The notes under the pieces are model-generated. The model had not been told where the DNA came from, did no database searches, and was given only the letters and a program-made list of their open reading frames with translations. 37,999 bases of DNA from Octopus sinensis (taxonomy: Eukaryota): positions 1 through 37,999 of the forward strand of contig NW_021835942.1 of NCBI RefSeq assembly GCF_006345805.1, in the 5' to 3' direction. Of the stretch, positions 5,745 through 37,999 are shown in pieces (within the stretch, counting starts at the first letter, position 1; every line of letters begins with the position of its first letter). The position numbers were made by a program, and so were the translations under genes.

Positions 5745-5834
5745 AACTTCGAGAAGACTTGAAATTAAGTTTTTATCCTTTAACTGTTGCTGTTAAAAGA
5801 TAAAAAAAACTTAACTTCAAGTCTTCTCGAAGTT
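5745..5834. repeat. ~90-bp near-perfect palindrome
   Basis: AACTTCGAGAAGACTTGAAATTAAGTTTTTATCCTTTAAC, 7-nt loop, GTTAAAAGATAAAAAAAACTTAACTTCAAGTCTTCTCGAAGTT. Confidence 0.85.
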
Positions 5835-6683: not shown

Positions 6684-6705
6684 TCTCCACTCTAGGCCCT
6701 CTAAT

Positions 6706-8311
6706 TGAGGGAGCGAGTCAGATAGATTGAGGGAGCGAGTGAGATAGATTGAGGGGACGAGACAGATAGATAGAGGGAGCGAGACAGATAGATAGAGGGA
6801 GCGAGACAGATAGATAGAGGGAGCGAGACAGATAGATAGAGGGAGCGAGACAGATAAATAGAGGGAGCGAGACAGATAGATTGAGGGAGCGAGACAGATA
6901 GATTGAGGGGATGAGACAGATAGAGGGGACGAGACAGATAGATAGAGGGGACGAGACAGATAGATAGAGGGAGCGAGACAGATAGATAGAGGGAGCGAGA
7001 CAGATAGATAGAGGGAGCGAGACAGATAGATAGAGGGAGCGAGACAGATAGATAGAGGGAGCGAGACAGATAGATAGAGGGAGCGAGACAGATAGATTGA
7101 GGGGACGAGACAAATAGATAGAGGGGACGAGACAGATAGATAGAGGGGACGAGACAGATAGATAGAGGGAGCGAGACAGATAGATAGAGGGAGCGAGACA
7201 GATAGATTGAGGGAGCGAGTGAGATAGATTGAGGGAGCGAGTCAGATAGATTGAGGGGACGAGACAGATAGATAGAGGGGACGAGACAGATAGATAGAGG
7301 GGACGAGACAGATAGATAGAGGGGACGAGACAGATAGATAGAGGGGACGAGACAGATAGATAGAGGGGACGAGACAGATAGATAGAGGGAGCGAGACAGA
7401 TAGATAGAGGGAGCGAGACAGATAGATAGAGGGAGCGAGACAGATAGATAGAGGGGACGAGACAGATAGATAGAGGGGACGAGACAGATAGATAGAGGGG
7501 ACGAGACAGATAGATAGAGGGGACGAGACAGATAGATAGAGGGGACGAGACAGATAGATAGAGGGGACGAGACAGATAGATAGAGGGGACGAGACAGATA
7601 GATAGAGGGGACGAGACAGATAGATAGAGGGGACGAGACAGATAGATAGAGGGAGCGAGACAGATAGATAGAGGGAGCGAGACAGATAGATAGAGGGAGC
7701 GAGACAGATAGATAGAGGGGACGAGACAGATAGATTGAGGGAGCGAGACAGATAGATAGAGGGGACGAGACAGATAGATAGAGGGAGCGAGACAGATAGA
7801 TAGAGGGAGCGAGACAGATAGATAGAGGGAGCGAGACAGATAGATAGAGGGAGCGAGACAGATAGATAGAGGGGCGCGACAGATAGATAGAGGGAGCGAG
7901 ACAGATAGATTGAGGGGACGAGACAGATAGATAGAGGGAGCGAGACAGATAGATGAGGGGCGAGACAGATAGATAGAGGGAGCGAGACAGATAGATTGAG
8001 GGGACGAGACAGATAGATAGAGGGGACGAGACAGATAGATAGAGGGAGCGAGACATAGATAGAGGGAGCGAGACAGATAGATAGAGGGAGCGAGACAGAT
8101 AGATGAGGGAGCGAGACAGATAGATTGAGGAGCGAGACAGATAGATTGAGGAGCGAGACATAGATTGAGGGAGCGAGACAGATAGATTGAGGGAGCGAGA
8201 CAGATAGATTGAGGGAGCGAGACAGATAGATTGAGGGAGCGAGACAGATAGATTGAGGGAGCGAGACAGATAGATTGAGGGAGCGAGACAGATAGATTGA
8301 GGGAGCGAGAC
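6706..8311. repeat. 22-bp minisatellite (GAGGGAGCGAGACAGATAGATA; variants GAGGGGAC and ATTG), ~70 units
   Basis: Tandem units visible; minus-strand ORFs repeat every 22 aa (3 units). Confidence 0.97.
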
Positions 8312-8351
8312 TGATCCATAGAGAGATAGATATTGAGATAGATAGATAGTG

Positions 8352-8403
<52 letters not shown>

Positions 8404-8880
8404 TGACAGATAAAGAGATTGATAGAGATAGAGAGATAGATAGTGAGAGAGATAGGTAGATAGATAGAGAGTGAGTGAGAGATAGAGAGAGATATATAGT
8501 GAGAAATATAGACAGATATAGAGCGACAGAGATAGATATTGATCTATAGAAAGAGAAAAAAGGAGATAGAGAGCGAGAGAGATAGATAGAGATAGAGCGA
8601 GATAGAGATAGGGGGAGATAGAGAGTGACAGAGAGAGATAGAGCGTGATAGAGATAAACGGTGATAGAGGGAGATAGACGGTGATGCATATAGACATTTA
8701 GAAAGAGATAGACGGTGATAGAAAGAGATAGAGGGTGACAGAAAGAGATAGAGGGTGACAGAAAGAGATAGAGGGTGATAGAGAGATATAGAGGGTGAGA
8801 GAGATATAGAGGGTGATAGAGTGAGATAGATATAGATAGAGACAGATAGGTAGACAGGTAGCGAGGTATGACAGATAGAC
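8312..8880. repeat. (GATA)n and degenerate GA-rich low-complexity tract
   Basis: Pure (GATA)n at ~8350-8400, decaying into GAGA/GATA mixtures. Confidence 0.9.
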
Positions 8881-10250
8881 AGAGATGGACAGGAAGAGCT
8901 GAACATGTAGAGATGGGCATGTAGAGATGGACAGGTAGAGCTGGACAAGTAGAGATGGACATGTAGAGATGGACAGGTAGAGATGGACAGGTAGAGATGG
9001 ACAGGTAGAGATGGGCAGGTAGAGATGGACATTTAGAGATGGACAGGAAGAGATGGACATGTAGAGATGGACAGGAAGAGATGGACATGTAGAGATGGAC
9101 AGGTAGAGATGGACATGTAGAGATGGACAGGTAGAGATGGACAGGTAGAGATGGACAGTTAGAGATGGACAGTTAGAGATGGACAGGTAGAGATGGACAG
9201 GTAGAGCTGGACAGGTAGAGCTGGACAGGTAGAGATGGACAGTTAGAGATGGACAGTTAGAGATGGACAGGTAGAGATGGACAGTTAGAGATGGACAGTT
9301 AGAGATGGGCGGGTAGAGATGGACAGGTAGAGCTGGACAGGTAGTGCTGGACAGGTAGAGATGGACAGGTAGAGATGGACAGGTAGAGATGGACATTTAG
9401 AGATGGACATTTAGAGATGGAGAGGTAGAGATGGACATGTAGAGATGGACAGGTAGAGATGGACAGTTAGAGATGGACAGTTAGAGATGGACAGGTAGAG
9501 ATGGACAGGTAGAGATGGACAGGTAGAGATGGACATGTGGAGATGGACAGGTAGAGATGGACAGGTAGAGATGGACAGTAGAGCTGGACAAGTAGAGATG
9601 GACATGTAGAGATGGACATGTAAGATGGACAGGTAGAGATGGACAGGTAGAGATGGACAGGTAGAGATGGGCAGATAGAGATGGACATTTAGAGATGGAC
9701 AGGAAGAGATGGACATGTAGAGATGGACATGTAGAGATGGACATGTAGAGATGGACAGTAGAGATGGACATGTAGAGATGGACAGGTAGAGATGGACAGG
9801 TAGAGATGGACAGTTAGAGATGGACAGTTAGAGATGGACAGTAGAGCTGGACAGGTAGAGCTGGACAGTAGAGATGGACAGTTAGAGATGGACAGTTAGA
9901 GATGGACAGGTAGAGATGGACAGTTAGAGATGGACAGTTAGAGATGGGCGGGTAGAGATGGACAGGTAGAGCTGGACAGGTAGTGCTGGACAGGTAGAGA
10001 TGGACAGGTAGATGGACAGGTAGAGATGGACATTTAGAGATGGACATTAGAGATGGACAGGTAAGATGGACAGGTAGAGATGGACAGTTAGAGATGGACA
10101 GTTAGAGATGGACAGTTAGAGATGGACAGGTAGAGATGGACAGGTAGAGATGGACAGGTAGAGATGGACATGTGGAGATGGACAGGTAGAGATGGACAGG
10201 TAGAGATGGACAGGTAGAGCTGGACAGGTAGAGATGGACAGGTAGAAGGA
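8881..10250. repeat. 14-bp minisatellite (AGAGATGGACAGGT and variants), ~95 units
   Basis: Tandem units visible. Confidence 0.97.
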
Positions 10251-10324
10251 TAGTTACGTATATGGATAGATATGTAGATAGATGGATAGATATGTAAATA
10301 AATGGATATATATATGTAGATAGA

Positions 10325-10800
10325 TAGATAGATACGTGGATAGATACGTGGATAGATACGTGGATAGATACGTGGATAGATACGTAGATAGATACGTAGA
10401 TAGATACGTAGATAGGTATGTAGATAGGTATGTAGATAGGTATGTAGATAGGTATGTAGATAGGTATGTAGATAGGTATGTAGATAGGTATGTAGATAGG
10501 TATGTAGATACGTATGTAGATACGTATGTAGATACGTATGTAGATAGCTGTGTAGATAGCTGTGTAGATAGCTGTGTAGATAGCTGTGTAGATAGCTGTG
10601 TAGATAGCTGTGTAGATAGCTGTGTAGATAGCTGTGTAGATAGCTGTGTAGATAGCTGTGTAGATAGCTGTGTAGATAGCTGTGTAGATAGCTGTGTAGA
10701 TAGCTGTGTAGATAGCTGTGTAGATAGCTGTGTAGATAGCTGTGTAGATAGCGATGTAGATAGCGATGTAGATAGCGATGTAGATAGCGATGTAGATAGA
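10325..10800. repeat. 12-bp array with stepwise variant blocks, abutting the 3' end of Tx1 copy 1
   Basis: Block order GATAGATACGTG, GATAGATACGTA, GATAGGTATGTA, GATACGTATGTA, GATAGCTGTGTA, GATAGCGATGTA. Confidence 0.97.
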
Positions 10801-13233
10801 TAACTTTCTTTATTGGCCACCCGAGGCTGAACATAGAGGGAACAAATACAAATGTAGAGCTTTTCTTTTCGAAAATGAAAAAGAGCATGTAAAACAAAAA
10901 GAGAACAAATATAAAATTCTGATCAAAAGGGATCGGAAAAAAACAATCAAAAGGGATCGTGTATCACAGAACTTTTTAAAAAGTAAGAAGCAAGATTAGG
11001 TTTATCCGTGGAAAGAAAAGCCTACGGAAAAGACCACGGTAGCCTCAGGCAGGGAAGAATTAATACATGAGAGTAAGGTGCTCTCTCTCTGACCGATTTA
11101 CTGGATCATACTCAAAATGGTTTCGCTGCTCGCACGCACCATCTTTGCTACATTCACCCACCTTTTTTGAAACTTTCACGAGACAAAACTTGCCTCTCCA
11201 TTCTCACCTTCCTTTTCAAGTGGTACTTGAAAAAGTTGATGAGCGATTGGCCAGAGAGGTAAGTGTTTGTCTCTAATCCTTTTGCTCGAGTCCACCACAC
11301 ACATTTTTCACCATGGCCAACAGTACGATGAAGACTGCCTTGCCTACCCGGTTGAGGGAAGGTAGCGGAGCAATTGATAGGACAGACTCGGCCGATAGGC
11401 GGATTCCTCCCACACGTAACAGCAGCCGTTCGGCATAAGCCCACACGTCCGAAATGGTTGGACACTGCATGAGTGCATGCAGGACTGTTTCGTCGCTCTG
11501 ACCGCATCTCGGGCAAGTCGGTCCGGTCCGGTGTGTCTCGAACCGTGCCTGTAGAGCTTATCGCGAACAGGTAATGCTTCTCGATAGCACTGCCAGGCCA
11601 GAGATTTTTGGTGATTGTCCATATAGGTCCCAGCCATAAAGTTGTCCTGAACAGGCGGGTCAGGCGTTTCTTGTCGACGCCCAGATTCGGCCCAGGAACG
11701 TCCTCTATAGAACGCCTTTGTTGCAATGAAGCCGCCCACGTTTGGTCCCGGACGGCAGTGTTGCTTGAGAGCAACGCAACACTCGCGGTGCCATTCGCCT
11801 AGCCTCGGTCTCTGTTTGATCCACGACTGTAGTTCGGTCGAGGAGACGAGCTGCAGGAAAGCGCGCCGCACAAACGGCGACCAACCTGCTTACCGTCGTC
11901 TATGAAGCGCCGGAGATGTCGCAGTCTCAGCGCATGTCTACGCATTATCAACTACGGCATGTCTAGCCCTCTATTTAGCGGGTGTTGACAGCAAATGGAT
12001 CGCCTAACCATCGGAACGCTTCCTTTCCACAGGTAGCGGAAGAGTATGAATTCCAGTTTGGTGATGGTAGGGGCGGGTCAAGGCACGACAGTCAGACGGT
12101 CGATGTGTTTGTGGATCGACACTTGACGGTGACGTCGTCCGCGTATGTAGACACGCTCCTGCCGCATCCCAGCTCTCGTGGGATGCCCCTCAGCGTCGCC
12201 AGCTTCTGCAGTAGTGGTTCAAGACTTAATACATAGAGAAGCGACGAGAGGGGGCATCCTTGACGAACAAAACGCATGATGTTAAATGGTCTGGATAGAT
12301 GACCAATTACGCGAATTACCGAGCGGATGCCGCTGTATAAACAGCGATCCAATCGCGGAAGATGGAACCGAAACCAGCCGCTTTAAGGACAGCCTCCAAG
12401 TAATGATGGTCTACCCTATCGAAGGCTTTTGATTGATCCAAATTGATCAGCATCCCAACCATGCAAGGATCCTGTCTATGATGTAACGCATCAGATGGAG
12501 GTTGTCATGGATACTCCTACTCGGTACGGTGCACGTTTGCGCCTTGTCGACTAGCTTCTCGATGACAAGCGCCAACCTCTCGGCTAATACTTTGGCCAAA
12601 ATTTTTTAATCTGCTTTGAGCAGAGTGATGGGCCTGAAGTTATCTATGACGTCCCCCTTGTTTGGATCTTTCTTTAGCAGTGTCACTGCTCCTCGCTTTA
12701 CAAAGACGGGGATACTTCCCTTTGCTGTCAGTTGCAACAGACTGCTGCCATGACGCCTCCAAACAAGTCTGGCATATAACAATAAAGTTCGTAGGGCAGA
12801 CCATCTAAGCCTGGTGACTTGTCTCTCACGCATCTTGCCATCGCATCCTGTACGTCCGCAGCCGTGATGGGTCTTTCACGGCACTCCGTCTCTCTTGCTG
12901 AGAGTCGTGGCAGGCCATGCAGGTAGGCACTAAAGTCGTCTCTGCGTTCTGACCCACCAGTTATCCCGAACAGTCAGGCAAAGTGTTGTTGAAAGGCCTC
13001 ACACATGCTTTCTGGCTCGAGTAATTCGCGCCCCTGTTCATCTGTAAGTAACCTAATGGTTGCTCTGTTGCCTCGTTGCGCCTCCGCCACTCGAGCCTCT
13101 CGGGCAGCTCCAACTCCTTCACCCCTCAGAACACACGTCGTAGCTCTGACAACGCATCCTTCGTGTTTGGCGTTGAGGTGTTGATCGAGGGCCAATTCTA
13201 AGTGCCTCTTCTAAATTCTTAACTAGGTCTCCA
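10801..13233 (-). mobile_element. Tx1-clade (L1 group) non-LTR retrotransposon copy 1, 5'-truncated and decayed
   Basis: ORF2 motifs FRPITLL, QGCPLSSLLYVLSLEP, YADD and the C-terminal zinc knuckle CPRCGQSDETVLHALMQCP; frameshifts, stops and a deletion after YADD; 3' end AATAAAGAAA. Confidence 0.9.
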
Positions 13234-13350
13234 GGTAGATATGTAGATAGATATGTAGGTAGATATGTAGGTAGATATGTAGGTAGATATGTAGGTAGAT
13301 ATGTAGGTAGATATGTAGGTAGATATGTAGGTAGATATGTAGGTAGATAG
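13234..13350. repeat. 12-bp array (GTAGGTAGATAT)n between the two Tx1 copies
   Basis: About 9 units, directly after the 3' end of copy 2. Confidence 0.95.
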
Positions 13351-16000
13351 GTTTCTTTATTGACCACGCTGGGCTGAATATAGAAGGGATAAAATACAAA
13401 GTAGAGCTTTTCTTTATGGGAAGAAGAGAAGGGAAAAAGGAAAAAAGAAAAAAAGGGTCGAATTCCGATCAAAAAGGATCGTGAAAAAAAAGTGGGGCCG
13501 ATCAATAGGGATCGTGTATCACAGAAATGTCAATGTAGAAAGGGAAAACAGATTAGGTTTGTCCGTGGATAGAAAAGCCTACGGAAAAGACCACGGGAAC
13601 CTTGGGCAATAGTGTCAAGTAAAAAGAAAACACATTAAGTGGCTCTCTTTTTTCCTTTCGTTTTTTTTCCATTTGGTTCATAGGAATATGCTCAGGCTGA
13701 CTCCGTTATTCACACGTGCCATCCTTGCTACACTCACTCATCTTTTTTTGAAGCATTCACTAGACAAAACTTGCCCCTCTAGTCTCACCTTCCTCTTCAA
13801 GTGATACTTGAAGAAGTTGATGAGAGATTGACCAGAGAGGAAAGTGTCTATAAATCTTTCAGACGCGTCCGCCATACACATTCTTTCGCCATAGCCACAA
13901 GTACGATGAAAATGGCCCTTCCTTCCCGTTTCAATGAAGGAGACGCGAAAATATATACGATATTGACGGACCGAACATGGAATGTCGAAAGGTCTCGATA
14001 GATGTCCATTTACGCAAATTACGGAACGGATGCCTCTGTACAAAGCAGCTATCTAGCCGCGGAAGACGGGACCGAAACCAGCCGCTATGAGGACAGCCCC
14101 CAAGTATTGATGGTGTACTCTATCTAAAGCTTTGGGTTGATCCAAATTGATCAGGGCCACACCCATGCCAGATTACATAACTACCCTGTCTATGATGTAG
14201 CGCACCGGTTGAGGGTTGTCATGGATGCTCCGGCTAGGCAGGGCGCACGTTTGCACCTTGTCGACCAGTTTCTTGATGACAAACCTCTTGGCCAAAATTT
14301 TCCTGTCTGCATTAAGCAGAGTGATGAGCCTAAAGTTGCCTGTTATGTCCTCCTTGTTTGGATCTTTCCTCAGCTCCTCGGCTCACAATACCGGGGATAC
14401 TTCCGTTTTTCAGCCAGTTGCAGTACACTGCTGCCAAGACGTCTCCAAATAAGTCTGGCAAGTCTGGCATACACCTGTAAAGCTCGTAGTGTAGACCATC
14501 CAAACCCGGCGATTTGTCCCTCAAGCATTCTGCCATCACGTCCTGCACTTCCGCCACCGTGATGGCACCTTTGCACACCTTGCCTCTCTTGGCGAGAGTC
14601 GTGACATGCTGTGTAGATAGGCACTGAAGTCTACCCTGCGTTCTCGCTTGCCACTCGTCCCGAATAATCAGGCAAAATGCTGTTGAAAGGCCTCACACAT
14701 TTTACTTGGCTCGAGTAATTCGCGTAATTGTTACCTTGTTGTGCCTCCGCCACCCGTCCCTCTAGCGCAGCACCAACACCTTCGTTCCTTAGAGCACGCA
14801 TCCTAGCTCTGACAACACACTCTTCGTGTTTGGCGTTGAAGTATTGGTCGAGGGCCAACCTCGCGCCAAAACGTCGGGTACGGTGCCACTTCTAATCGCC
14901 TCTTCTAGCTTCTTAACTATGTCACCCTCTACCCTGTTTCTATCTATGACTATTGCTTTGCTATACTTAATCGCTTCTGCTATTTTTGCTCTCTTAAGGG
15001 TAAACCACCATTTGTTGTTAATGGCTCCCATCAAAGCCTTCTTTACTAGCGTACTAATCCAGTCTCTGAAAGCCTTTCTCGACGGGAAAGACGCGTTTAG
15101 TTTCCAGTACCCGGGACCCTGCCTATGTGTCTTATCTAAGTCTAGCGTACACGTCACAAGTTTGCGATCCATGTAGTTGACCATGTGGAATTGTGGACAC
15201 CCTACGTTATCTTTATCTACTGCCCTGCACAGTATCCTATCTAGATACGATCTCGACAACCCGGTGCGGTTGCTCCACGTCCATGTTGGCGCATTCGGGT
15301 GGTCGAGTCGGTACCTGTCAGACAGTTGAAAGCGTCTGAGCAGGTCTCTGAGGCATTTGCATCCTCGTCTATTCCTATCTTTGCCCACGTAGTCTAGATG
15401 CCTGTCTAAGGTAGCATTCCAATCTCCCGCTAAAAGTAAGGGACGTTCCTAGGAATACTTCTACACATCGAAAGAAATCCAGCCGACCTGTTAAAGGTGG
15501 TGCGTAGACTAATAGAAGTCGAAAAGAGCACCCATTGCTGCTGTCGTCATCCGGGAAGACCAGTCTACCCTCCGGGTCTACGAATATTGTCTTTACTTCG
15601 AGATCCAGACTCTTGCGAAAAAGTACCGCCGTGCCACTACCGCCCATTCTCAGCAGACAGGGAAAAAAATAAATGTTAAACTGTCCACCAAACATGGACT
15701 TTACGGCCCTTGGATAATGGAGTCTGGTCTCACTTATGGCTTTTGTGACTTTATTTCATTTAAGAGTTTCCCTTGTTTGCAAGGGGACCCCAAAGCCACG
15801 CGTGTTCACACAACCAATTTGATCATAATCCTAGTGAGTTAAAACATAAATGAAAGGAGCAACATTGTTGTTGATGATGGCTCCCATCAAAGCCTTCTTT
15901 ACTAGCGTAAAGTTTTTGCTTTCTTCTCCTTCAGTTTGTTGTCGAGGAGATCCCAATAATGTTTTTGCGAAAGGTATTTCTGGCATTTACCAGAAATAGT
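13351..16000 (-). mobile_element. Tx1-clade retrotransposon copy 2 with APE endonuclease, partial RT and a large internal deletion
   Basis: IGCVNTRG near 15810, VYAP, TWTWSN..SYLDRI, GPGYWKLN, KSPGLDGL; jumps from mid-RT to the C-terminus near 13950; 3' UTR homologous to copy 1. Confidence 0.9.
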
Positions 16001-16039
16001 CAGGCAGGTATAGGTAGATAAATATTGGGAGATAGATAT

Positions 16040-16560
16040 AGGGAGATGTAGTTAGGGAAATGTAGCTAGGGAGATGTAGCTAGGGAGGTGTAGCTAGGGA
16101 AGTGTAGCTAGCGAGATGTAGCCAGGGAGGTGTGGCTAGACAGATGCGGCGAGATAGATGCGGCGAGATAGATGCACTAGATAGATATAGCTAGATAGAT
16201 ATAGCTAGATAGATATAGCTAGATAGATATAGCTAGATAGATATAGCTAGATAGATATAGCTAGATAGATATAGCTAGATAGATATAGCTAGATAGATTT
16301 AGCTAGATAGATTTAGCTAGATAGATTTAGCTAGATAGATTTAGCTAGATAGATTTAGCTAGATAGATTTAGCTAGATAGATTTAGCTAGATAGATTTAG
16401 CTAGATAGATTTAGCTAGATAGATTTAGCTAGATAGATGTAGTTAGATAGATGTAGTTAGATAGATGTAGTTAGATAGATGTAGTTAGATAGATGTAGTT
16501 AGATAGATGTAGTTAGATAGATGTAGTTAGATAGATGTAGTTAGATAATAATAATGTTAG
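16040..16560. repeat. 14-bp (GATA)-derived array with stepwise variant blocks
   Basis: Block order AGCTAGGGAGATGT, AGCTAGATAGATAT, AGCTAGATAGATTT, AGTTAGATAGATGT. Confidence 0.95.
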
Positions 16561-16938
16561 ACAGATGTTAGTTAGATAGATGTAGTTACAAATAGTCAGA
16601 CAATATAATTAAATAGATATAGAGAAACATAGATAGATAGGTAGGTGGATAGAGATTGTGAGAGATAGGGAGAGATAGAGATAGGTAGTTAGAGAGAGAA
16701 AGAGAGAGAGAGAGAAAAATGGATAGAGACAGAGAGAGAAATGGATACAGAGAGAAAGAAATGGATAGATGGGTAGATAGAACTCGTGCAAACATTCATC
16801 ACAACTCGTGTTTCATGTTTATCTACTTATATATATTTTGCTCATGTATAAATTCATTGTAAGCTCGTGTCTTTTACGTATATCTTTTATCGACAGAAAT
16901 TCTACATCTACGTGCTATAGACATAAATGCTACACACA

Positions 16939-17486: not shown

Positions 17487-17782
17487 CTTCTATAATATTC
17501 CTAATATTTTCTATGAATGGAAGTTTGTTTAAATAAAACGATTATACCTAAAACCAATTACTTTCCAATTAAGTAAAGTTCTCCCGGTATCTGGAGGACA
17601 GGAATCCAGAATTTTTGGTTTTGCGTACAGAATTTCAGAATTAAATGTTTCAGGAAATTGTTATCTTTTGTTTAAAACCAAAACATACGGCTCTACCTAG
17701 ATGCAAAGTGCCCCCTCCTACATGTTGGAACATGCTTATATATATTTTATAAAAGTATGTTTTTTCTTATCTATTCATATAT

Positions 17783-18030
17783 CGGTAAAATTACAGATTA
17801 ACACCCGCACGATTTTCACTAAAAAAAAAAAAAAAAATCAGAGTTCTTTTTTGTGTGAAAATTCCGGGGTGGCGGGGTCGACCCCCCCTCCTCCGGACCA
17901 ATTCCGAACCAAAATATGGGATTTCCAGCATATTAGGAGGTCAGGGTACTTGATTCCACGCAAAAAATCCGAGTTTTTTTGTTTTTTTTCTTAGTGAAAA
18001 TCGTGCGGGTGTTAATCTGTAATTTTACCC
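17783..18030. mobile_element. MITE with long terminal inverted repeats
   Basis: TIR GGTAAAATTACAGATTAACACCCGCACGATTTTCACTAA and its reverse complement at ~17991-18029; ATATAT on both flanks. Confidence 0.85.
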
Positions 18031-18051
18031 ATATATCTTATGTAGATAAAA

Positions 18052-18695
18052 CCTACATGTCCAAGGTGCCACTCTGTAACATTTTATGTAAATGTCTACT
18101 ATAGTCTAGGCCGACTTAAACTCTGTGAGTGGATTTGGCAGATAAAAACTGAAAGGAGCCCGTCGTATGTGTGCGTGTATTCATACGCGCACATACACAC
18201 ACATATCCACACACATATATATATATATGTATGTATGCATTCACACACACACACATGCACATACAGTGTATGTGGTGGTGGGGTCTATGTGCTGTCCACC
18301 TCCGTTTGACAACCGGTATTTACCGGCTGCCGTTTACGTTGTGAGTTCAAATTCCGCCGAGGTCGACTTTGCCTTTCATCCTTTCGGGGTCGATAAATTA
18401 AGTACCAGTTACGCACTGGGGGTCGATACAATCGACTTAATACCTATGTCTGTCCATGTTTGTCCCCTCTATATTTAGCCCCTTGTGGGTAATAAAGAAA
18501 TAGGTATTTACGTACCCGCAACTTGCGGGTCGGCAGAAGAACCGATAGAATAAGTACTATGCTTTCTATTCTTTAAAAAAAAAAGAAAAGAAAAAAAAAA
18601 GAGGCGCTGGACTTGTCTCATTAGATTAAACCTCTTTAAGGTGGGGTGCCCCAAAATGGTTCCAGTGTAATGACAGAAACACGAGAAATATGAAA
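18052..18695 (+). mobile_element. Old family-A SINE interrupted by a young family-C SINE
   Basis: TGTGAGTGGATTTGGCAGA..CCCGTCGTA before the insert and CCGATAGAATAAGTACT after it. Confidence 0.75.
18324..18502 (+). mobile_element. Young family-C SINE (5'-truncated) with Tx1-like tail
   Basis: Central GTCGACTTTGCCTTTCATCCTTTCGGGGTCGATAAATTAAGTACCAG (resembles the Meta/MESC SINE domain, from memory); flanked by GGTATTTAC at 18315-18323 and 18503-18511. Confidence 0.85.
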
Positions 18696-19123: not shown

Positions 19124-19604
19124 CTTTTATCTATATTACAACAGCATGTGTATGTTAGGGCCACTGCCTTTTAACACAAAATGTAAAGAAATCTTTCAAA
19201 TAACTTTATGCTTGCTCGCCAGACGTTGGTTCCCTGCCGGATGACCACCTTGCTATCTTGTGGCACATCTTTGTCGCTCAGTAAGTAATTATTTTCGTGC
19301 AGTTGTGTTCTCCTCCTGATACGTCCTCTATTTTCTATCATCTCCAATTCTCTTATTCATTTGTTTATCTCTCAGTTTTATTTCACGTCGGCACTGAGCT
19401 TTTCCATATTACGTTGGCATGTTGCCACTTCCTTTTTTCATTTCTGTTGTTGGTGGGGTCAAAGTTTCCGATCCGTAAACTACTACGTGTGTTGTTCATT
19501 AATTTAGGGCATTTTTTTTTTTCCTTTTCTTTTGAGATTCAATGGGATGTCTGATATGATAATGCATTCCTGCTTACTTAGAAGAGGAGCAACCAAATAT
19601 TAAT

Positions 19605-19868
19605 TACAAATTTTGGCACGAGGTTAGCATTTCTGGGGGAGGTGTAGGTCTAGTACATTGACCTCTATACTCAACTTGTACTTATTTTGTCGGCCTTGTA
19701 AGAGGAAAAAGCAAACTTGACCCCGGCGGAATTTGAACTCAAACGTAAAGTCGGAAGAAATGTCGCTAAGCGTTTTGTCCGGTACGGTAATGAGTCTGCC
19801 AGCACGCAGTGGAGACTGACCCCGGAACCATGTGGTTGAGAAGCAAGCATCTTACCACACAGCAACAT
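19605..19868 (-). mobile_element. Old family-C SINE joined to a family-A head fragment
   Basis: Family-C body 19605-19805; family-A 5' piece 19803-19868. Confidence 0.7.
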
Positions 19869-22184: not shown

Positions 22185-23792
22185 TAAACGTTATATGTAA
22201 TTTTTGGCATTATATATATATGTGTGTATATTGATTAGATAGTTTCAAAATTTTAGTTTAAATGTGAGCAGACTTCGTAAATAGTCAATATTTTACAATA
22301 ACAAACTAAAGGAGCCGAGAAAAGTCGTGGGGAAAAAAATTCTGTTTGTCCCTTTAAAATATTTAGTTTTCATCTGTTCAACGTTAACAGTGTTCTCTCT
22401 CTCTCCCTGTCTCTATTTATCCGTTTATCTCTCTGTCTTTCCTTCTTCCAGTCGGTGGTACTATGTAAATTAAACGGAAATCTCTGATTTCATCGTTACC
22501 TGTTGCTTTATGATGCATAAAGTCTTCTGTTTTAAATTTGTAACAAATAGCGAAATTATTAAATTGGAGAAACACACATTTTAAGCAAATGATTCTATTA
22601 TTAATTATAATGAATTTCAAACATAACAGGATTCCGCTGTATTATTATTATTATTAGTTGTAATATAGCCAAAAATGAAATTCAGTATTAACCTTCCATT
22701 CCGCGCCTCTCTCCACTTGATATTATGAGGGATATACCTGGTATGCTCCTTGTCGATGAAGTTGGTATCAATAAAATTTGTAATAGATGAATAACTGTAT
22801 TGAGTTCTTTTAGTTATTATTTGTTTATATGTTGAGAAAACAAAAAAACACTCATTGTTTACACACACACACAAACGTATGTTGATTGCATTGTTTACAA
22901 ACAGCTGTATGCAGTTTAATGTTGTTGACATAAGAAAAAGAAAAGAAAGGAGGAGGAAGAAGAAAAAAGTGAAAGACAAACCTAACTTATTTACAGTACG
23001 TGTGTCTGTGTGTGCGACTGCGTCGGCAAACACACAGTAATGAAATCTCTCACAGAGTTGAAAATGTTATTCCAATCAGTCGGAGCTCCGCTAGTAACTG
23101 TCCAAAATGCAGTGAGTAACGCACAGAGAAATTAACTTTCCTTTCTTTTTCTCTTCTTTCTATCTTTTATTCATTTTATTTATTTAATCTTTTTTCTTAT
23201 TTTATCTGTCACTTAGTCTTCTTCGATCTCCTTCCATTATGTTTATCATATTTATTATATATGAGAAAGATTAATTTCCCAACGAACCATTATTTGATCA
23301 AACCACTTGAACACATCTTTAGAATGAGACAACCGTCTTCCAGTTGATTTTCATAATCAAATAGGAACTGGAGCCCTATTTATTCAATTTAAAATAATAT
23401 GACCCAATGAGGACGATTAGGATTTCAAGATGCAAATTCACCCCTTCAGTTCTGTGACCACTTTCAGAAACTGTCTCCGAAGAAATAAGAATTAAAAAGA
23501 AAAAAAAAAAGAGTGCGAGAAAAATATATGCCCTTTTGAGTTCGTGAACTCTTTTAGAAAAATTTCAAAGAATCTTCTAAAAGACACAGGATTTTAGAAA
23601 ATGGAAAAGTTTTTTATAATATATTCATTTTATTTGTAGTAAATTGTGGAGATGAACGAGCGGAGGATTAAAATGTATTGTTATGAATAATCAAGACTTT
23701 CTACGTTCAAATCCTACCAAAGGTAGCTACTCGTTTATACTTCAAGGGTAAATATTTAAAGACGGTGAAATTCCTGATGGATTAGAGCTTTG

Positions 23793-24193
23793 GGATCTTT
23801 TCGGTTTGAACGGCAGTTTTTTCTAGCGTTGTCATATGAAATTGTCACCCATAATTATGACCCTAGTATCCATCTATTGCATTTCAATCTGTTTTAGGGT
23901 TAGGGGTGGGGGTATCTTTTTTTCTTCCCAAATGTAAATAAACCCAATCTGTTTCTTAAACGAGGGACATATTCATACGGCACAGACTCTTTTTTACCTC
24001 AATAGACGTCAGTGATTGGTTGAAATTGCAGAAATTGAAGAAAAAAACAAATATCTTACAAACTATAGAATTTTCTCAATTAAGCTAAGAGAAAAAGATG
24101 TTTTATAAACACATTCTACCAGTATACCAAGTTTTAAATTTTTTAGCTAACTAGAAATTATGTTAAAAACTGCCGTTCAAACCGAAAAGATCC
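23793..24193 (+). mobile_element. GGATC-TIR MITE, copy 1
   Basis: 29-bp TIR GGATCTTTTCGGTTTGAACGGCAGTTTTT; internal TTAGGG-like tract. Confidence 0.9.
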
Positions 24194-24254
24194 AATACGT
24201 TCTACTATTTTTCTCCGAGATATTTTTATTTATAACTTTTCTGAAGTTGATAAA

Positions 24255-24807: not shown

Positions 24808-25205
24808 AGTTAGCAGAACTATTAGGGCGTCGGAAAATGCGTTGCGGTGTTTATTCAGATTCTTTTACATTCTCAGTTCATCGAGATATAATTTGCCTTT
24901 TATCCATCCCAGATCGATAAAATGACGTAACAGTCAAAGTACTCAGGTCAATGTTATCGACTCATCACTCACCTAAAAATTCTCGGCCTTGTTCCTATAG
25001 AAGAAGCAATTACTAAGGTGGTGAGCTGACCGAATCGTTACCGCACTTCTTCCGGCTCTTTATGTTCTAAGTTCAAATTCCGCGAGTCGACGTTGCCTTT
25101 CATTCTTTCGGAATCGATGAAATAAGGCACCAGTCAAGTAATGGGGTTGATGTAATCTATTATCCCTCCCCCAAGTTTCAGGCCTCTTGCCTATAACAGA
25201 GAGAA
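24808..25205 (+). mobile_element. Two tandem old family-C SINEs
   Basis: Two successive TTGCCTTT(T/C)AT..GATAAAAT/GATGAAAT..CAGTCAA domains, each with the old-C tail. Confidence 0.7.
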
Positions 25206-25249
25206 TTATTATTAATGTTGAATGGAATAATGATGGGCAATTCTTTATC

Positions 25250-26612: not shown

Positions 26613-26744
26613 CTTCTAATAAATGGAAATGAATCCTAGTTAAAATCCCATCTACAGATATTTTGCTGTTCATTGTGTACTGAAGAGAGAGAGAGAGAGA
26701 GAAAGAGAGAGACTCAGTCCTTTATTATTCAATTGTAACAATCC

Positions 26745-26934
26745 TTTGTACTATAGGCACAATGCCTTAAAAAATTTGGTGGGGGTGGGGGGCTAGTGGA
26801 TTCCATCGACAACAGTACTCAACTGATATTTTCTTATCGACCCTGAAAGGATGAAAGGCATAGTTAACCTCACGGAATTTGAACTCTGAATGTAAACAGC
26901 CACCAAGCATTTTGTCCGGTGTGCTAACGGTTCT
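26745..26934 (-). mobile_element. Old family-C SINE
   Basis: TATCGACCCTGAAAGGATGAAAGGC..GGAATTTGAACTC plus the old-C tail. Confidence 0.75.
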
Positions 26935-26951
26935 TACGTTATAGGAATACC

Positions 26952-27186
26952 TATTTCTTTACTACCCACAGGGGGCTAAACATAGAGTGGACAAACAAGG
27001 ACAGACAAAGGGATTAAGTCGATTACACCAACCCTAGTGCGCAACTGGTACTTAATTTATCGACCCCGAAAGGATGAAAAGCAAAGTCGACCTCGGCGGA
27101 ATTTGAACTCACAACGTAACGGCAGGCGAAATACCGCTAAGCATTTCGCCCAGCGTGCTAACGGTTCTGCCAGCTCGTTGCCTTCA
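26952..27186 (-). mobile_element. Young family-C SINE, full length, with Tx1-like tail
   Basis: 17-bp direct repeat TACGTTATAGGAATACC at 26935-26951 and 27187-27203. Confidence 0.9.
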
Positions 27187-27403
27187 TACGTTATAGGAAT
27201 ACCGTCTCCTGAGTAAGGGCATAAAATCTTTTTCAGATACATTTCAGCCCCTGACCCACAAGCATGCTGCCCCTAGTTCTCACATTTTTACCGCTGCTGT
27301 TATGGTCTCTGCCTCTCAGTGTCATCTCCTTTTTGGCACACTTGTCTCACTTATCTCTCCTATTCACACTTCTCATGTTGAGTTTAGCACTTTCAAAACC
27401 TGG

Positions 27404-27788
27404 GGGAAGCACTCCGTCGGTTACGACGACGAGCGTTCCGGTTGATCCGAATCAACGGAACAGCCTGCTCGTGAAATTAACGTGTAAGTGGCTGAGCACT
27501 CCACAGACACGTGTACCCTTAACGTAGTTCTCGGGGATATTCAGCGTGACACAGAGAGTGACAAGGCCGGCCCCTTGAAATACAGGTACAACAGAAACAG
27601 GAAGTAAGAGTGAGAGAAAGTTGTGGTGAAAGAGTACAGCAAGGATCACCACCATCCCCTGCCGGAGCCTCGTGGAGCTTTAGGTGTTTTCGCTCAATAA
27701 ACACTCACAACGCCCGGTCTGGGAATCGAAACCGCGATCCTATGACCGCGAGTCCGCTGCCCTAACCACTGGGCCATTGCGCCTCCAC
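27404..27788 (-). mobile_element. Family-B SINE
   Basis: TSD TTCAAAACCTGG at 27392-27403 and 27789-27800. Confidence 0.92.
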
Positions 27789-27990
27789 TTCAAAACCTGG
27801 ATTAATCACTACACCTAGTTCTTCCTCTCGGTTTTCTGGAAACCTAGCCTTACTTCAAGTAGCAACTTGTGACCGTTTCAGCTGAACGTTAACGGTTCCC
27901 GCACAACGATCACAGGTGGGGAGAGTGCGAAAGCTATGGGTTCTTCCCCTTCATCCTGTTCTAGCAATTATACAATAAATAAATAAAATA

Positions 27991-28405
27991 GGCGCAGGAG
28001 TGGCTGTGTGGTAAGTAGCTTGCTAACCAACCACATGGTTCCGGGTTCAGTCCCACTGCGTGGCATCTTGGGCAAGTGTCTTCTGCTATAGCCCTGGGCC
28101 AACCAATGCCTTGTGAGTGGATTTGGTAGACGGAAACTGAAAGAAGCCTGTCGTATATATGTATATATATATATATGTGTGTGTGTGTTTGTGTGTTTGT
28201 GTTTATCCCCCTAGCATTGCTTGACAACCGATGCTGGTGTGTTTACGTCCCCGTCACTTAGCGGTTCGGCAAAAGAGCCGATAGAATAAGTACTGGGCTT
28301 ACAAAGAATAAGCCCTGGGGTCGATTTGGCCGACTAAAGGCGGTGCTCCAGCATGGCCGCAGTCAAATGACTGAAACAAGTAAAAGAGTAAAGAGTAAAA
28401 GAGTA
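27991..28405 (+). mobile_element. Family-A SINE
   Basis: Full-length match with (GTAAAAGA)n tail. Confidence 0.92.
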
Positions 28406-28440
28406 ACAATGAGTTACTGAAAACGCAATTATATATATAT

Positions 28441-28670
28441 GTTTCTTTATTACCCACAAGGGGCTAAACCCAGAAGGGACAAACAAGGACAGACAAACGG
28501 ATTAAGTCGATTACATCGACACCAGTGCGTAACTGGTACTTAATTTATCGGCCCCGAAAGGAAGAAAGGCGTAATCGACCTCGACGGAATTTGAACTCAG
28601 AACGTAGCGACGGGTGAAATGCCGCGAAGCACTTCGTCCGGCGTGCTAACGTCTCTGCTAGCTCGCCGCT
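28441..28670 (-). mobile_element. Young family-C SINE with Tx1-like tail
   Basis: Matches 26952-27186; 3' end lies in (TA)n. Confidence 0.88.
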
Positions 28671-28984
28671 TTAAATATAAGTGACAGATATAGTTGTATG
28701 TATGTGGGCGCTCGCGCGTATAACACCGATGTTCTGTTATCCAAATATTCATGAAAATAGCCTTCCACATTCAGTGAGTTATGTTCTACTTCATGATCCT
28801 GAAATATCTTTTTAATATAAAACACTAAGGGATCCAATTAGGTTATCCTCGTTAGGACGTTTAACCTCTTATAAAATATGGTTAGATATGTAATCGGTTA
28901 TATACTTCGTTATAGTCGAAGGTAATGTGGTAATGCTAAGAATCATTAGGACCTCCAGAGTTACTCAAGTACTTAATTTATCGA

Positions 28985-29830
28985 CGAAATGCGTAGCGGT
29001 ATTTCGTCTGCCGTTACGTTCTGAGTTCAAATTACGCCGAGGTCGACTTTTCCTTTCATCCTTTCGGGGTCGATTAAATAAGTACCAGTTATGCACTGGG
29101 GTCGATATAATCGACTTGATCCGTTTGTCTGTCCTTGTTTGTCCTCTCTGTGCTTAGCATCTTATTCGTAGTAAAGAAATAGGTATTTCGTCCGTCTTTA
29201 CGTTCAGAGTTAAAATTTCACCGAGCTTGACCTTGCCTTTCATCCTTTTGAGGTGGATAAAATAAGTACCAGTAAGTTCGATACAATCGACTTACCTCTT
29301 CCCCCGAAATTGCTGGCTTAGTGCCAAAATTTTAAAACAATATTGGTCAGCGGCACTTCCTAACATCTCCCCCTCAAAATTACTGACCATGTGCTTAAAT
29401 TCAAAACAATAATTTAGAACAGTGATTTGGTAGAATCTATAGAGCGTCGTATAAAATACTTTGCAGTATTTCTTTCCTCTGTTTGCGTTTTGGGTTCGAA
29501 CCCCGCCGAGGTTAGGTTTACGTTTCATCCTTTCATGATATATAATAAAGTACCACTCATATTATGCGATCGATAAGTATCCCAACAAAATTAATTACCA
29601 ATCTAAATCAGAAATAAAATTCAGAGGCTACAGACTCGCGGAATAGTTTGACGTCCGACAAAAGTTCTTTGTAATTTCGGCACTTTACGTTCTGCGTTCA
29701 AATTTCACCGGAGACAAATTTTATTGTTTATCGCTCGGTTGCCGATAGAATAATCAAGTGTCATTCAAGTACTAAAATCAGTGTCATCAGCCCCGCTCTC
29801 CTTCCTTTGCCTCAAATTTCCCGGTCGTGA
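28985..29830 (+). mobile_element. Cluster of four co-oriented family-C SINEs (one young copy ending at 29181, three old)
   Basis: Box B plus central domain repeated at ~29020, 29205, 29490 and 29690. Confidence 0.75.
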
Positions 29831-31749: not shown

Positions 31750-32195
31750 TGATCTTTTCGGCAGTTTTTAACATAATTTCTAGGTAACTAAAAAAATTTT
31801 TAACTTCGTATAACTGGTAGAATGTGTTTATAAAACATCTTTTTCTCTTGGCTTTATTGAGAAAATTCTATAGTTTGTAAGATATTTGTTGCTTTTTTTC
31901 TTCAATTTCTGCAATTTCAACAAATCACTGACATGTATTGCGGTAAAAAGCATTCTGTGCCGTATGAATATGACCCTCGTTTAAGAAGCAGATTGGGTTT
32001 ACTTACATTTGTGAAGAAAAAAAATACACTTCCTCCCACCTCTAACCCTAACCCTAACTAACTCTAACTAAACCTAACTAACCCTAACCCTAAAAAAGAT
32101 TGAAATGCAATAGATCAATACTAGGGTCATAATTATGGGTGACAATTTCATATGACACCGCTAGAAAAAAACTGCCGTTCAAACCGAAAAGATCC
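31750..32195 (-). mobile_element. GGATC-TIR MITE, copy 2
   Basis: Reverse complement of copy 1; left TIR partly deleted; possible TSD AATAATAG/GATAATAG; (CCCTAA)-like tract at 32040-32092. Confidence 0.88.
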
Positions 32196-32434
32196 GATAA
32201 TAGTTACATTAAATGATGTCTCCTTCCTTCTTTTGTGGAAATAGCAGCCAAATCTTTAAGTTTGGCTGCTATTTCTAGCAGGCTGAGTGGTTACATGTAA
32301 TCACCACTTTTGGTTCGATAGTTGTAATTTTAGTCTGAAGTAAACCCTGATTGAATGCATCTTTAATTAAACGTCATTCCAACCCTGACCATCTTGTCTA
32401 GCAAGAACTACATTATTCAAAGCATCATGGCTGC

Positions 32435-32637
32435 GAGCTAACAGAATCGATATCGCACCGGACAAAATACTTAGCGGATTTTCCCCGGCTTTACGTTCCG
32501 AGTTCAGACGTTGCCGAGGTCGATTTTGCCGGTCATCCTTTCGGGGTCGATAAAATAAATATAAGTTAAACACTGAAATCGATGTAATCAACTAGTTCTT
32601 CCCCGCAAAATTTCAGGCCTTGTGCCTATAGTAGAAA
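32435..32637 (+). mobile_element. Old family-C SINE
   Basis: Head, TCATCCTTTCGGGGTCGATAAAATAA and tail AAAATTTCAGGCCTTGTGCCTATAGTAGAA. Confidence 0.8.
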
Positions 32638-32641
32638 ATTA

Positions 32642-33284
32642 GGATCTTTTCGGTTTGAACGGTAGTTTTTTCTAGCGGTGTCATATGAAATTGTCACCCT
32701 AGAATCGATCTATTGCATTTCAATCTCTTTTAGGATTAGGGTTGGGGTTAGGGGTGGGGGGAGGGTATCTTTTTTTCTTCCTAAATGTAAATAAACCCAA
32801 TCTGTTTCTTAAACGAAGGACATATTCATACGGCACAGAATGCCTTTTAACTCAATAGACGTCACTGATTGGTTGACGTCTAACTAAAAAATTTAAAACT
32901 TCGTTTAACTGGTAGATTGTGTTTATAAAACATCTTTTCTCTTGACTTTATTGAGAAAATTCTATAGTTTGTAAGATATTTGTTGTTTTTTTCTTCAATT
33001 TCTGCAATTTCAACCAATCACTGACGTCTATTGAGGTAAAAAAGATTCTGTGCCGTATGAATATGTCCCTCGTTTAAGATACAGATTGGGTTTATTTACA
33101 TTTGTGAAGAAAAAAAGATACACTTCCCCCCACCCCTAACCCTAACCAACTCTAACTAAACCTAACTAACCCTAACCCTAAAACAGGTTGAAATGCAATA
33201 GATCGATACTAGGGTCATAATTATGGGCGACAATTTCATATGACACCGCTAGAAAAAAAACTGCCGTTCAAACCGAAAAGATCT
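32642..33284. mobile_element. Composite GGATC-TIR MITE with ~235-bp inverted arms
   Basis: Plus-oriented half (32642-32876) joined to a nearly complete minus-oriented copy (32881-33284). Confidence 0.88.
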
Positions 33285-33369
33285 GAGTTTCCTTTAAACA
33301 TTATAATAGTATTTAACATAATCAAAAATTTCCCCATTCGACGATATACGTGTCCGAGTAATACGCTTA

Positions 33370-33836
<467 letters not shown>

Positions 33837-34216
33837 TATTATATCTAATACACTTTAAATTCTTTTTATATCTAATACCCTGAATGGAGTACTGATTCGA
33901 ACTGAGAGACAGTGCATCTGCTTCACTCAAAGGTATCCTAAACCGCTTCCATAAGAAAAAAAAGAAGCCCCCAACATAAAAAAAGAAGCCAAAACAACTA
34001 TCTGACACTTAGTAGGCTCAGTAACACAACTTATCCAGAATCTTTTGTTTCCTGAGCTCTGACTTTTCTTCCCTTAATACAATAGTATTACTTCTTCTGA
34101 GTTGGTTGACTTTTTGCCGACTCTGTTCAGGGCCATTCAACGTATTCATCTCTTTTCTCATCATACATATGTACGCTCTCAATGCACTGCACAAACCACT
34201 TTGCCCAGTCACTGAT

Positions 34217-34730
34217 TCAAGAGTGTAGGTCTTTTGGAATTCTCTTCCAGTACGTATCTGTCAGAAATTGTCCACATCAAACAGCTCAAGAGAACAGTTA
34301 ACCCTGTAAAACTCATCGCCATGGTGATGATCCTGTTGTCAGAGATGCTCAAACCTCCACTCCAGGCCAATCCGTCATTTTTCTTTTTTTTTTTTATTTA
34401 TATTCCTAACTGCTACGTGATAAGATTGCCTTACATTAATTACTGTACTTCAAAGATAACTACATGAATCTACTACGACTCAAGAGTGTAGGTCTTTTGG
34501 AATTCTCTTCCAGTACGTATCTGTCAGAAATCGTCCACATCAAACAGCTCAAGAGAACAGTTAACCCAGTAAGACTCATCGCCATGTCAGAGATGCTCAA
34601 ACCTCCACTCCAGGCAAATCCGTCATTTTTCTTTTTTTTTTTATTTATATTCCTAACTGCTACGTGATAAGATTGCCTTACATTAACTACTGTACTTCAA
34701 AGATAACTACATGAATCTACTACGACTCAA
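34217..34730. repeat. Tandem duplication (263-bp and 247-bp units)
   Basis: Units 34217-34479 and 34480-34726 with TCAA at all three boundaries; unit 2 lacks 15 bp (GTGATGATCCTGTTG). Confidence 0.93.
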
Positions 34731-37351: not shown

Positions 37352-37378
37352 TATATATGTATATGTTACATGTATATG
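37122..37378. repeat. (TA)/(TATG) microsatellite abutting the RTE 3' end
   Basis: Directly visible. Confidence 0.93.
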
Positions 37379-37999
37379 TGATGATGGCAATCCCTCAAGG
37401 TCGAGGATGATGGTCTTCACGCAAATTTACTAGTGAGTCCGTAAGTGACTGATAAGACCAATTCTTGCTTGAAAAGATCGGTCGCAGTGCGGACATCTAG
37501 TGCCGGAAGGGAGAGTCGCACGTGGTTGTTGTTGGCGCTCCTTCCGTCGTCGTCTTTTCTCCTCCAGCTCTGCAGACCTTTTCGACTCGAAAGTCGCCGT
37601 TCCCTCATGGATGGTGGTTTTCCAGAGTGGTCTGTTTTTTGCCGTTTCCTCCCAGTTAGTGAAGTCAATGTCACAATTTTTGAGGTTCGTTTTCAGGGAG
37701 TCCTTGTAGCGTTTCTTCTGGCCTCCTTTTGTACGCTTGCCGTCTTTGAGTTGGGAGTAGATCTGTTTGGGAAGTCGTTCGTCAGTCATTCTAACCACGT
37801 GACCGCTCCATCTTAGTTGGCCTTTGATGACATAGGCTTCGATGCTGGTCATTTTTGCTTCTTGTAGCACGCTGACGTTAGTTCTTCTGTCTTCCCAGCT
37901 GATGTTAAGGATCTTTCGGAAACAGCGTTTGTGAAATTTCTCGAGCGTTTTCAGGTGGTGACTATACGGGGTCCAGGCTTCGGATGCGTAAAGGAGGGT
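37379..37999 (-). mobile_element. 3' end of an RTE-clade (BovB/RTE-like) LINE, running off the window
   Basis: Short 3' UTR with stem-loop (CCTCGACCTTGAGG) and a CATCATCA end. Confidence 0.88.
37430..37999 (-). CDS. C-terminal part of RTE LINE EN/RT polyprotein (partial, open at window edge)
   Basis: Stop-free 189 codons: [74 protein letters not shown] (terminal C2H2 finger). Confidence 0.88.

Follow-up and report, generated by a model that had tools for sequence, protein, structure and literature searches.

Does a SINE of octopus owe its 3' end, and perhaps its mobility, to an L1-type LINE? The question is raised by a stretch of 37,999 nucleotides of Octopus sinensis DNA, referred to here in its full length as the window, which is repeat-rich and contains members of three SINE families (A, B, and C) along with two L1-group LINEs and part of an RTE-like LINE. 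An earlier note on this DNA had claimed that a young family-C SINE ends like a Tx1-clade LINE and was moved onto Tx1 machinery by a tail swap. We take families A, B, and C to be like OK, OR1, and OR2, with family C resembling OR2. The LINE features of the window are as follows.

10805..13232, minus strand: L1-Tx1 LINE copy 1, 5'-truncated, with a broken ORF2 (linker, RT, C-terminal CCHC-type region), from translation and tblastn with P0004
about 10805-11097, minus strand: 3'UTR of LINE copy 1
10805..10846, minus strand: the last 42 nt of LINE copy 1, shared with the SINE; they finish with AATAAAGAAA, no poly(A)
13352..15990 (5' limit approximate), minus strand: L1-Tx1 LINE copy 2, with endonuclease and part of the RT, an internal deletion near 13963, and a rearranged 5' piece
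13352..13393, minus strand: shared 42-nt 3' end of LINE copy 2

RT motifs are present in both LINE copies, with the frames broken. The N-terminus of ORF2 in copy 2 encodes an AP-type endonuclease, found above the cut-off (PF03372, E 2.9e-06, 14789-15448, minus strand), and the C-terminal region of copy 1 has a zinc-knuckle motif, C-x2-C...H-x4-C. P0004, a near-complete relative on which PF13966 was found, matches copy 1 at 56-75% in most segments and at 38% in one, and its closest solved structure is human L1 ORF2 (E 3e-50; R2, E 4e-24). By a hand count across two frameshifts, with about ten residues left out, the RT of copy 1 agrees with O.sinensis_100/101_LINE at 135 of 149 aa, and copy 2 has diagnostic words in common with O.bimaculoides_9_LINE; these clusters carry the class L1-Tx1 (PMC10294476, supplement). 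The Tx1-clade identity claimed for the LINE is thus supported by the published cluster label, although that label may be broader than Tx1 in the sense of Tx1L, Keno, Kibi, and Koshi. The LINE proteins also match an Argonauta protein, the Argonauta relatives being P0003 and P0006. Several sister RT lineages of O. sinensis share the motif (39 alignment rows bear it, of which 25 were inspected), and in a wider RT search the matching RT clusters were all unnamed. In L001 4900-5678, a distant relative (30% to P0004), the terminal AATAAAG lacks poly(A) and is followed directly by a (TC)n repeat, an arrangement known from Kibi-type targets. Within copy 2, a 42-nt piece of ORF2 at 15012-15053 is duplicated at the rearranged 5' end (15868-15909).

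The two copies are 73% identical in DNA and so belong to different subfamilies. Their terminal 42 nt agree at 34 of 42 positions, in register with the 3'UTR, and a block near 11000-11050 agrees at 39 of 42, while the remaining 3'UTR blocks score 21-32; the end and this block are therefore the best-kept parts of the 3'UTR between the subfamilies. Since the end has been kept in two subfamilies so far apart, it is older than the SINE copies that bear it, which are 85-93% alike. As a separate observation, the coding DNA is less well kept than the 3'UTR block 10960-11050/13510-13600 (minus strand) and a short GATCCCTTTTGAT motif that occurs repeatedly, which makes these two candidate RNA elements.

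The family-C SINE copies of the window, with their tails, are listed here.

18315..18502, plus strand: 5'-truncated, Tx1-like tail 18459-18500, inside a family-A SINE
26952..27186, minus strand: full-length, Tx1-like tail 26954-26995
28442..28672, minus strand: full-length, Tx1-like tail 28442-28483, then a (TA)n-like run
28983..29181, plus strand: 5'-truncated, more diverged Tx1-like tail 29138-29179
18440..18458, plus strand: 19 nt of the new tail, from the breakpoint of old and new tails up to the portion that matches Tx1, unmatched in both window LINEs
32430..32642, plus strand: old copy, alternative tail
26745-26934 (minus strand), 25010-25210 (plus strand), and 19590-19810 (minus strand): further old copies

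The end of LINE copy 1 aligns with the SINE tail at 18459-18500 without gaps at 34 of 42 positions, reproducing the count given in the earlier note, and the end of copy 2 reaches the same score, also ungapped. Against the tails at 26954, 28442, and 29138, the scores are 33, 32, and 28 for copy 1 and 31, 32, and 24 for copy 2. As a control, 300 dinucleotide-shuffled 42-nt queries were made for each LINE tail, and the best match was scored anywhere in the window on either strand; for both tails, the shuffled queries reached 22-27 of 42, and the best unrelated real site in the window scores 23. The tail had been said to occur also in copy 2 and in the SINEs at 26952, 28441, and about 29140-29180. 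This is so, although the copy at 29138 is weak on its own, its 24/42 falling within the shuffle range. When the 10-nt AATAAAGAAA anchor is removed, copy 1 still matches the four SINE tails at 24/32, 24/32, 22/32, and 19/32, compared with best scores of 18-23 (copy 1) and 18-22 (copy 2) for shuffles treated likewise. In local alignment, the three best SINE tails give z = 10.8-15.3, and 0 of 2000 shuffles are as good. A profile built from the two LINE ends, the only two on which the comparison rests, places three SINE tails next in a window-wide scan, at 21-25 bits; a profile built from the four SINE tails places both LINE ends next, at 22 and 17 bits, and the following site at 8 bits. The likeness stops sharply upstream of the 42 nt, where 5 of the next 18 bases match, and within the tail the SINE bases differ from both LINE ends at columns 18, 25, 26, 31, and 32. 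Poly(A) is absent from the ends of the LINE copies and of the tail-bearing SINEs. Thus, the 42-nt end common to a family-C SINE subfamily and the two L1-Tx1 LINE copies is real.

The central domain of the SINE was also compared with the LINE-tail profile, and this candidate was rejected, as its 11-15 bits correspond to about three hits expected by chance. Outside the window, the tail pattern had no matches in viral contigs, in bacterial genomes, or in metagenome contigs, where the pattern left out the upstream SINE bases. Loci related to the LINE were not found in viral contigs, and the metagenomes gave five distant ones (24-37%). The tail is absent from these five (best 20-22/42), a result that is uninformative on close relatives.

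Can the shared end fold? Four of the six tails fold alike, with an outer stem that pairs TCT-A-TGTT with AATA-A-AGA and a small inner stem, and the remaining two take other shapes. Across the six tails, 41 of the 42 outer-stem cells are paired, with G-U/A-U and U-A/U-G/C-G variation, compared with 44-59% in slid controls; however, the covariation is not significant, since 33 of 500 shuffles reach the same score. Over the predicted 3' stem-loop, 96% of cells are paired, the same 33 of 500 shuffles being as high. The inner stem is offset by one base between LINE and SINE. The small hairpin described earlier at the tail end can therefore be drawn, but its folding energy is no better than that of shuffles in any of the six tails (z +0.53 to -1.18). 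We regard the hairpin as predicted, and as a fair guess.

The SINE is a short, interspersed, high-copy element of about 235 nt, with 5' truncations. A B-box-like GAGTTCAAATTCC can be seen by eye in its head; ARAGORN reported 0 tRNA genes, Rfam gave no tRNA match in 26900-29400, and no match to a U1/U2 snRNA-derived head was found in the family-C SINE. Old and new tails part right after the central domain, near 18439, and only the last 42 nt of the 61-nt new tail match the window LINEs. The old copies carry at least two other tail types, in agreement with the earlier observation of a different tail: the one quoted then lies at about 32605-32640, 25165-25200, 26740-26790, and 24965-25005, and a second type at about 29295-29340 and 19600-19640, and also at 29370-29410. 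In both old types, a small stem can be drawn that encloses a CTTGT-like loop. Pairwise, the old type-A tail is weakly similar to the tail at 18459 (z 2.1-5.8), with the same CTTGT loop and the stem swapped, although a window-wide profile scan places this similarity within the background (8.4 bits, compared with 7-9 at unrelated sites). The tail swap may have come from an older related partner. The SINE called young is younger than the old family-C copies, as the four tail-bearing copies are 85-93% alike and the six old ones 65-76%; families A and B, whose copies average 92% and 96%, are even more recent. LINE copy 1 is at about 9% protein distance from the published cluster (one copy), and the SINE copies are at about 6% DNA distance from their centre (four copies), so that the two ages may be compatible. 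The SINE at 28983-29181 passes without a gap into an old family-C copy, meeting its head segment (29182-29340). An inverted 17 nt at 28969-28985 raised the question of twin-priming, which was rejected on the ground that the direct piece starts upstream of the inverted one.

The insertion sites of the LINEs and SINEs differ. The LINE copies adjoin the following feature.

6700..10803: GATA/TATC-rich satellite tract, 3' of LINE copy 1, with like tracts at 13240-13351 and about 15995-16800

The two LINEs sit head to tail within one GATA/TATC-derived tract (6700-16800) with several unit types, where the motif density is 15-19 per 100 nt compared with 1.6-1.7 elsewhere. Microsatellite targeting by the LINE is possible, the two copies in one shared tract not being independent evidence of it. 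By contrast, three of the four SINE copies continue after the tail with TAGGTATT (flanks 18503-18511, 26935-26951, and 29182-29192), and the same three have C-GGTATT at the 5' side; the fourth, at 28442, is followed by a TA run, and no target-site duplication was found for it. The SINE at 26952 has a clean 17-bp target-site duplication outside the SINE (26935-26951/27187-27203), which starts with GGTATT. For the SINE at 18315-18502, GGTATTTAC is present at both 18315-18323 and 18503-18511, but here, as at 28998, the 5' repeat coincides with the internal GGTATTT of the SINE, so that the duplication is ambiguous. Target duplications are thus clear in one of the four tail-bearing SINEs, ambiguous in two, and absent in one. 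GGTATT occurs 19 times in the window, both strands together, and the word is also found inside the family-C head; the GGTATT landings may reflect self-targeting or a composite element. The flank at 18503 reads TATTTAC, whereas all six other family-A copies read TGTTTA, although the family-A host at 18503 is itself diverged.

The rest of the window holds several other elements. The RTE-like LINE 3' fragment (37370-37999, minus strand) has an open frame of about 190 aa with a C-terminal C2H2-like motif, and its end bears a weak likeness to the family-B SINE end (z 1.3-2.8), possibly a second SINE/LINE pair. A 223-nt inverted repeat, 98% identical and about 0.9 kb apart (25250-25472/26390-26612), with a family-B SINE inside, may be a young DNA transposon or MITE. 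Palindromic or terminal-inverted-repeat (MITE-like) elements lie at 1300-1781, 5745-5834, and 17777-18036. A repeated element of 400 nt with short terminal inverted repeats and telomere-like CCCTAA runs is found at 23790-24200, 31760-32200, and 32640-33290, the last holding two copies back to back, and there is a tandem duplication at 34214-34730 (about 260 nt, 92% identical).

Contigs from public runs were placed on the SINE and LINE stretches. Runs X1 and X7 come from two studies with two species labels, and X1 is possibly the source of the window itself. Contigs leave at 18421 into the old tail in both (2,445 in X1 and 1,346 in X7), and others in the same runs cover the new tail through 18509, with cover in both runs going on through TAGGTATTT. 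In X1, 333,736 contigs fall on a 246-nt SINE stretch (142,184 in the other run) and 15,944 on a 2.4-kb LINE stretch; such counts do not measure copy number, yet they make it plain that the SINE greatly outnumbers the LINE. Many contigs run from the new tail into a family-C head, with joints from 18506-18510 back to 18333-18342 supported by 4-39 contigs per row (X1), and the letters between the joints vary. At the LINE 3' junction, no loose-end row was found among the best 24 of 3,941 rows of the contig placement; one more LINE contig end with TATC-type repeats was seen, in run X15.

How, then, did the SINE come by this end, and what moves it? We consider it rather probable that the family-C subfamily gained the 42-nt Tx1 end by template switching and relies for its copying on the ORF2 protein that a sister Tx1 family encodes, which would recognise the poly(A)-less, hairpin-forming end. 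This explanation is supported by the single breakpoint between old and new tails, the lack of poly(A), the 17-bp duplication, and the L1-Tx1 identity of the LINEs; furthermore, the only other LINE in the window, the RTE-like one, has an end unrelated to the family-C tails. In the proposed sequence of events, a template switch onto Tx1 RNA would join the Tx1 end to the family-C body. The sister-family ORF2 protein would then bind the terminal stem-loop, in which AAUAAA would be paired, and reverse transcription would start at or just after AATAAAGAAA, a position suggested by the SINE copies, three of four having no more than 9 nt beyond the tail. The endonuclease of the partner would pick C^GGTATT, a site inside the family-C head, perhaps with help from pairing of the last RNA bases. 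The A at 18503, where the six other family-A copies have G, is a hint of such pairing, though the host is diverged. There is precedent for individual steps: zebrafish L2 ORF2 proteins, from a stringent LINE, bind the 3' stem-loop (PMC4176376), and a template switch has been proposed for other SINE superfamilies (PMC4824008).

On sequence grounds, a SINE/Tx1 partnership is probable, but the LINE copies of the window are probably not the direct partner, because of the TATC as opposed to TAGGTATT flanks, the five tail differences, and the 19 unmatched upstream bases. A sister family of these two LINEs is the likely donor of the tail and mover of the SINE. The tail swap onto Tx1 machinery put forward in the earlier note therefore stands as regards the shared 3' end, the L1-Tx1 identity, and the switch at one breakpoint, and is not supported as regards the window copies as partner. 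The direction from LINE to SINE is favoured, since the end predates the 27% split between the LINE subfamilies. In the data examined, no sister Tx1 family landing at GGTATT was seen. Further points count against the proposal: given the excess of SINE contigs, a modest LINE family would have driven a huge SINE expansion, and contigs running from tail to family-C head are also expected from a composite that ends in the old tail.

Other explanations must be weighed against this one. The TATC-repeat Tx1 families of the window might move the SINE directly, with the RNA bases beyond the tail pairing with nicked DNA and steering the landing. The equal match to both LINE copies, the contig cover through TAGGTATTT in two runs, and the A in the 18503 flank, which may be RNA-templated, would all fit; however, the five tail differences are fixed, the 19 upstream bases are unmatched, the A may be a mutation of the diverged family-A host, and the target of Tx1-type elements is thought to be set, usually, by the endonuclease (PMC4494074). 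We judge direct movement by these families unlikely. It is similarly improbable, in our estimation, that the tail came from Tx1 once and that the SINE then spread as a composite, with the new tail in the middle and old body and old tail at the end, or by another LINE enzyme, the Tx1 segment being a passenger. Such a form is seen in the copy at 28983-29340, which has no host head upstream, and the tail-to-head joints of X1 agree with it, as does the report that RTE-BovB is the expanded LINE of octopuses (PMC10294476, PMC8967140). On the other hand, the new tail is terminal in three of the four copies, one with the clean duplication, the letters between the joints vary as they would from independent insertions into diverse old copies, and neither of the family-C tails is related to the end of the RTE-like LINE.

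The transfer might also have run the other way, an ancestral Tx1 LINE having taken and retained a SINE 3' end. The likeness of the old type-A tail to the new one would then mean that the SINE lineage may have had the hairpin for a long time, but this likeness is within the window-wide background, the end is common to two LINE subfamilies 27% apart, and the sharing is limited to the last 42 of the 61 new-tail bases; we give this direction little credence. Chance or convergence of a T-rich stretch, a small hairpin, and an AATAAA signal is more improbable still. Ten of the 34 matched positions do belong to the AATAAAGAAA end, yet the 24/32 obtained without it exceeds all 300 shuffles for each LINE tail, and a profile from either side alone ranks the other side first. 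This explanation is largely refuted.

Copying of the SINE by a sister Tx1 family, if correct, would show what drove a major expansion of SINEs in octopus, one that is usually discussed without a partner; SINEs make up 11.6% of the O. vulgaris assembly (PMC13282606), and tRNA-Core SINEs are the main octopus SINEs (PMC8967140). It also bears on the origin of the L1 clade, where the question is whether recognition was tail-specific first and was then relaxed to poly(A), and an animal Tx1/SINE pair without poly(A) would be a direct test system. A bolder version, which we hold to be doubtful, is that RNA selection in an animal L1-group lineage depends on a hairpin that lacks poly(A) and hides AAUAAA, that a short RNA tag beyond the hairpin, derived from an earlier landing site, steers the target, and that this SINE, among the commonest in octopus, captured both and homes into the heads of its own family. 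If this were true, target choice by an L1-type enzyme would be partly RNA-guided, and the ancestral stringent state would be alive beside the vertebrate L1 branch. In the tree of PMC3472496, Tx1 groups with vertebrate F-lineage L1.

In the full-text papers searched, neither a SINE/Tx1 pair with a common tail nor a LINE partner for any octopus SINE came to light. No such partner is named in the passages searched in PMC13282606, PMC4758252, PMC8967140, PMC5804259, PMC4824008, PMC9115989, PMC3531059, PMC4176376, PMC5786205, PMC12988792, and PMC10294476. Table 1 of a survey of 58 SINE/LINE pairs has L2, CR1, and RTE among its LINE partners and gives L1 for maize, sorghum, and Chlamydomonas alone; within that table no family is named Tx1 and there is no octopus SINE (PMC3747384); the L1-tail SINEs of the survey are three only, from plants and an alga (PMC3472496).

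Family C is putatively OR2-like. Octopus OR2 is a CORE-SINE of O. vulgaris, for which no partner LINE is given in the passages searched (PMC4758252, PMC5804259). CORE-SINEs resemble family C in combining one head and body with alternative LINE tails (MIR/L2, MIR3/L3, Mar-1/RTE, UnaSINE/UnaL2, BivaCORE-SINE1/CR1, and BivaCORE-SINE2/L2; PMC3747384 Table 1, PMC4824008), but their reported partners are L2, CR1, and RTE, whereas the octopus tail is of L1/Tx1 type. The crocodilian SINEU had been cited in the earlier note as a precedent. Like the octopus SINE, it appears to be moved by a Tx1 element (Tx1-Mar), inserts at one site in another repeat, and forms stacked copies (PMC4494074). It does not, however, serve as a precedent for tail-sharing: Kojima reports no LINE sharing the SINEU-1 3' end and argues for the Tx1 link from target preference (PMC4494074). 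SINEU has U1/U2 heads and poly(A) and is linked by its target (PMC4494074), while the octopus SINE is linked by its shared end and has a target unlike that of the LINE copies. The Tx1 families Kibi, Koshi, and crocodilian (TTCC)n target microsatellites (PMC4494074), and both octopus LINE copies lie in a simple-repeat tract, although their repeat is TATC-like, unlike (TTCC)n, and the two copies share one tract. The closest tail-sharing precedents are thus the plant and algal L1 pairs. ZmSINE2 and ZmSINE3 of maize and sorghum with LINE1-1_ZM, and SINEX-3_CR of Chlamydomonas with L1-1_CR, have about 45-50 terminal nt and a proposed hairpin in common with an L1-clade LINE, and in these pairs, as here, the LINE end is better kept than the remainder (PMC3472496, PMC3747384). 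A terminal poly(A) or poly(T) is present in those lineages of plants and algae, whereas the octopus pair is of animal L1-Tx1 type and has no homopolymer tail.
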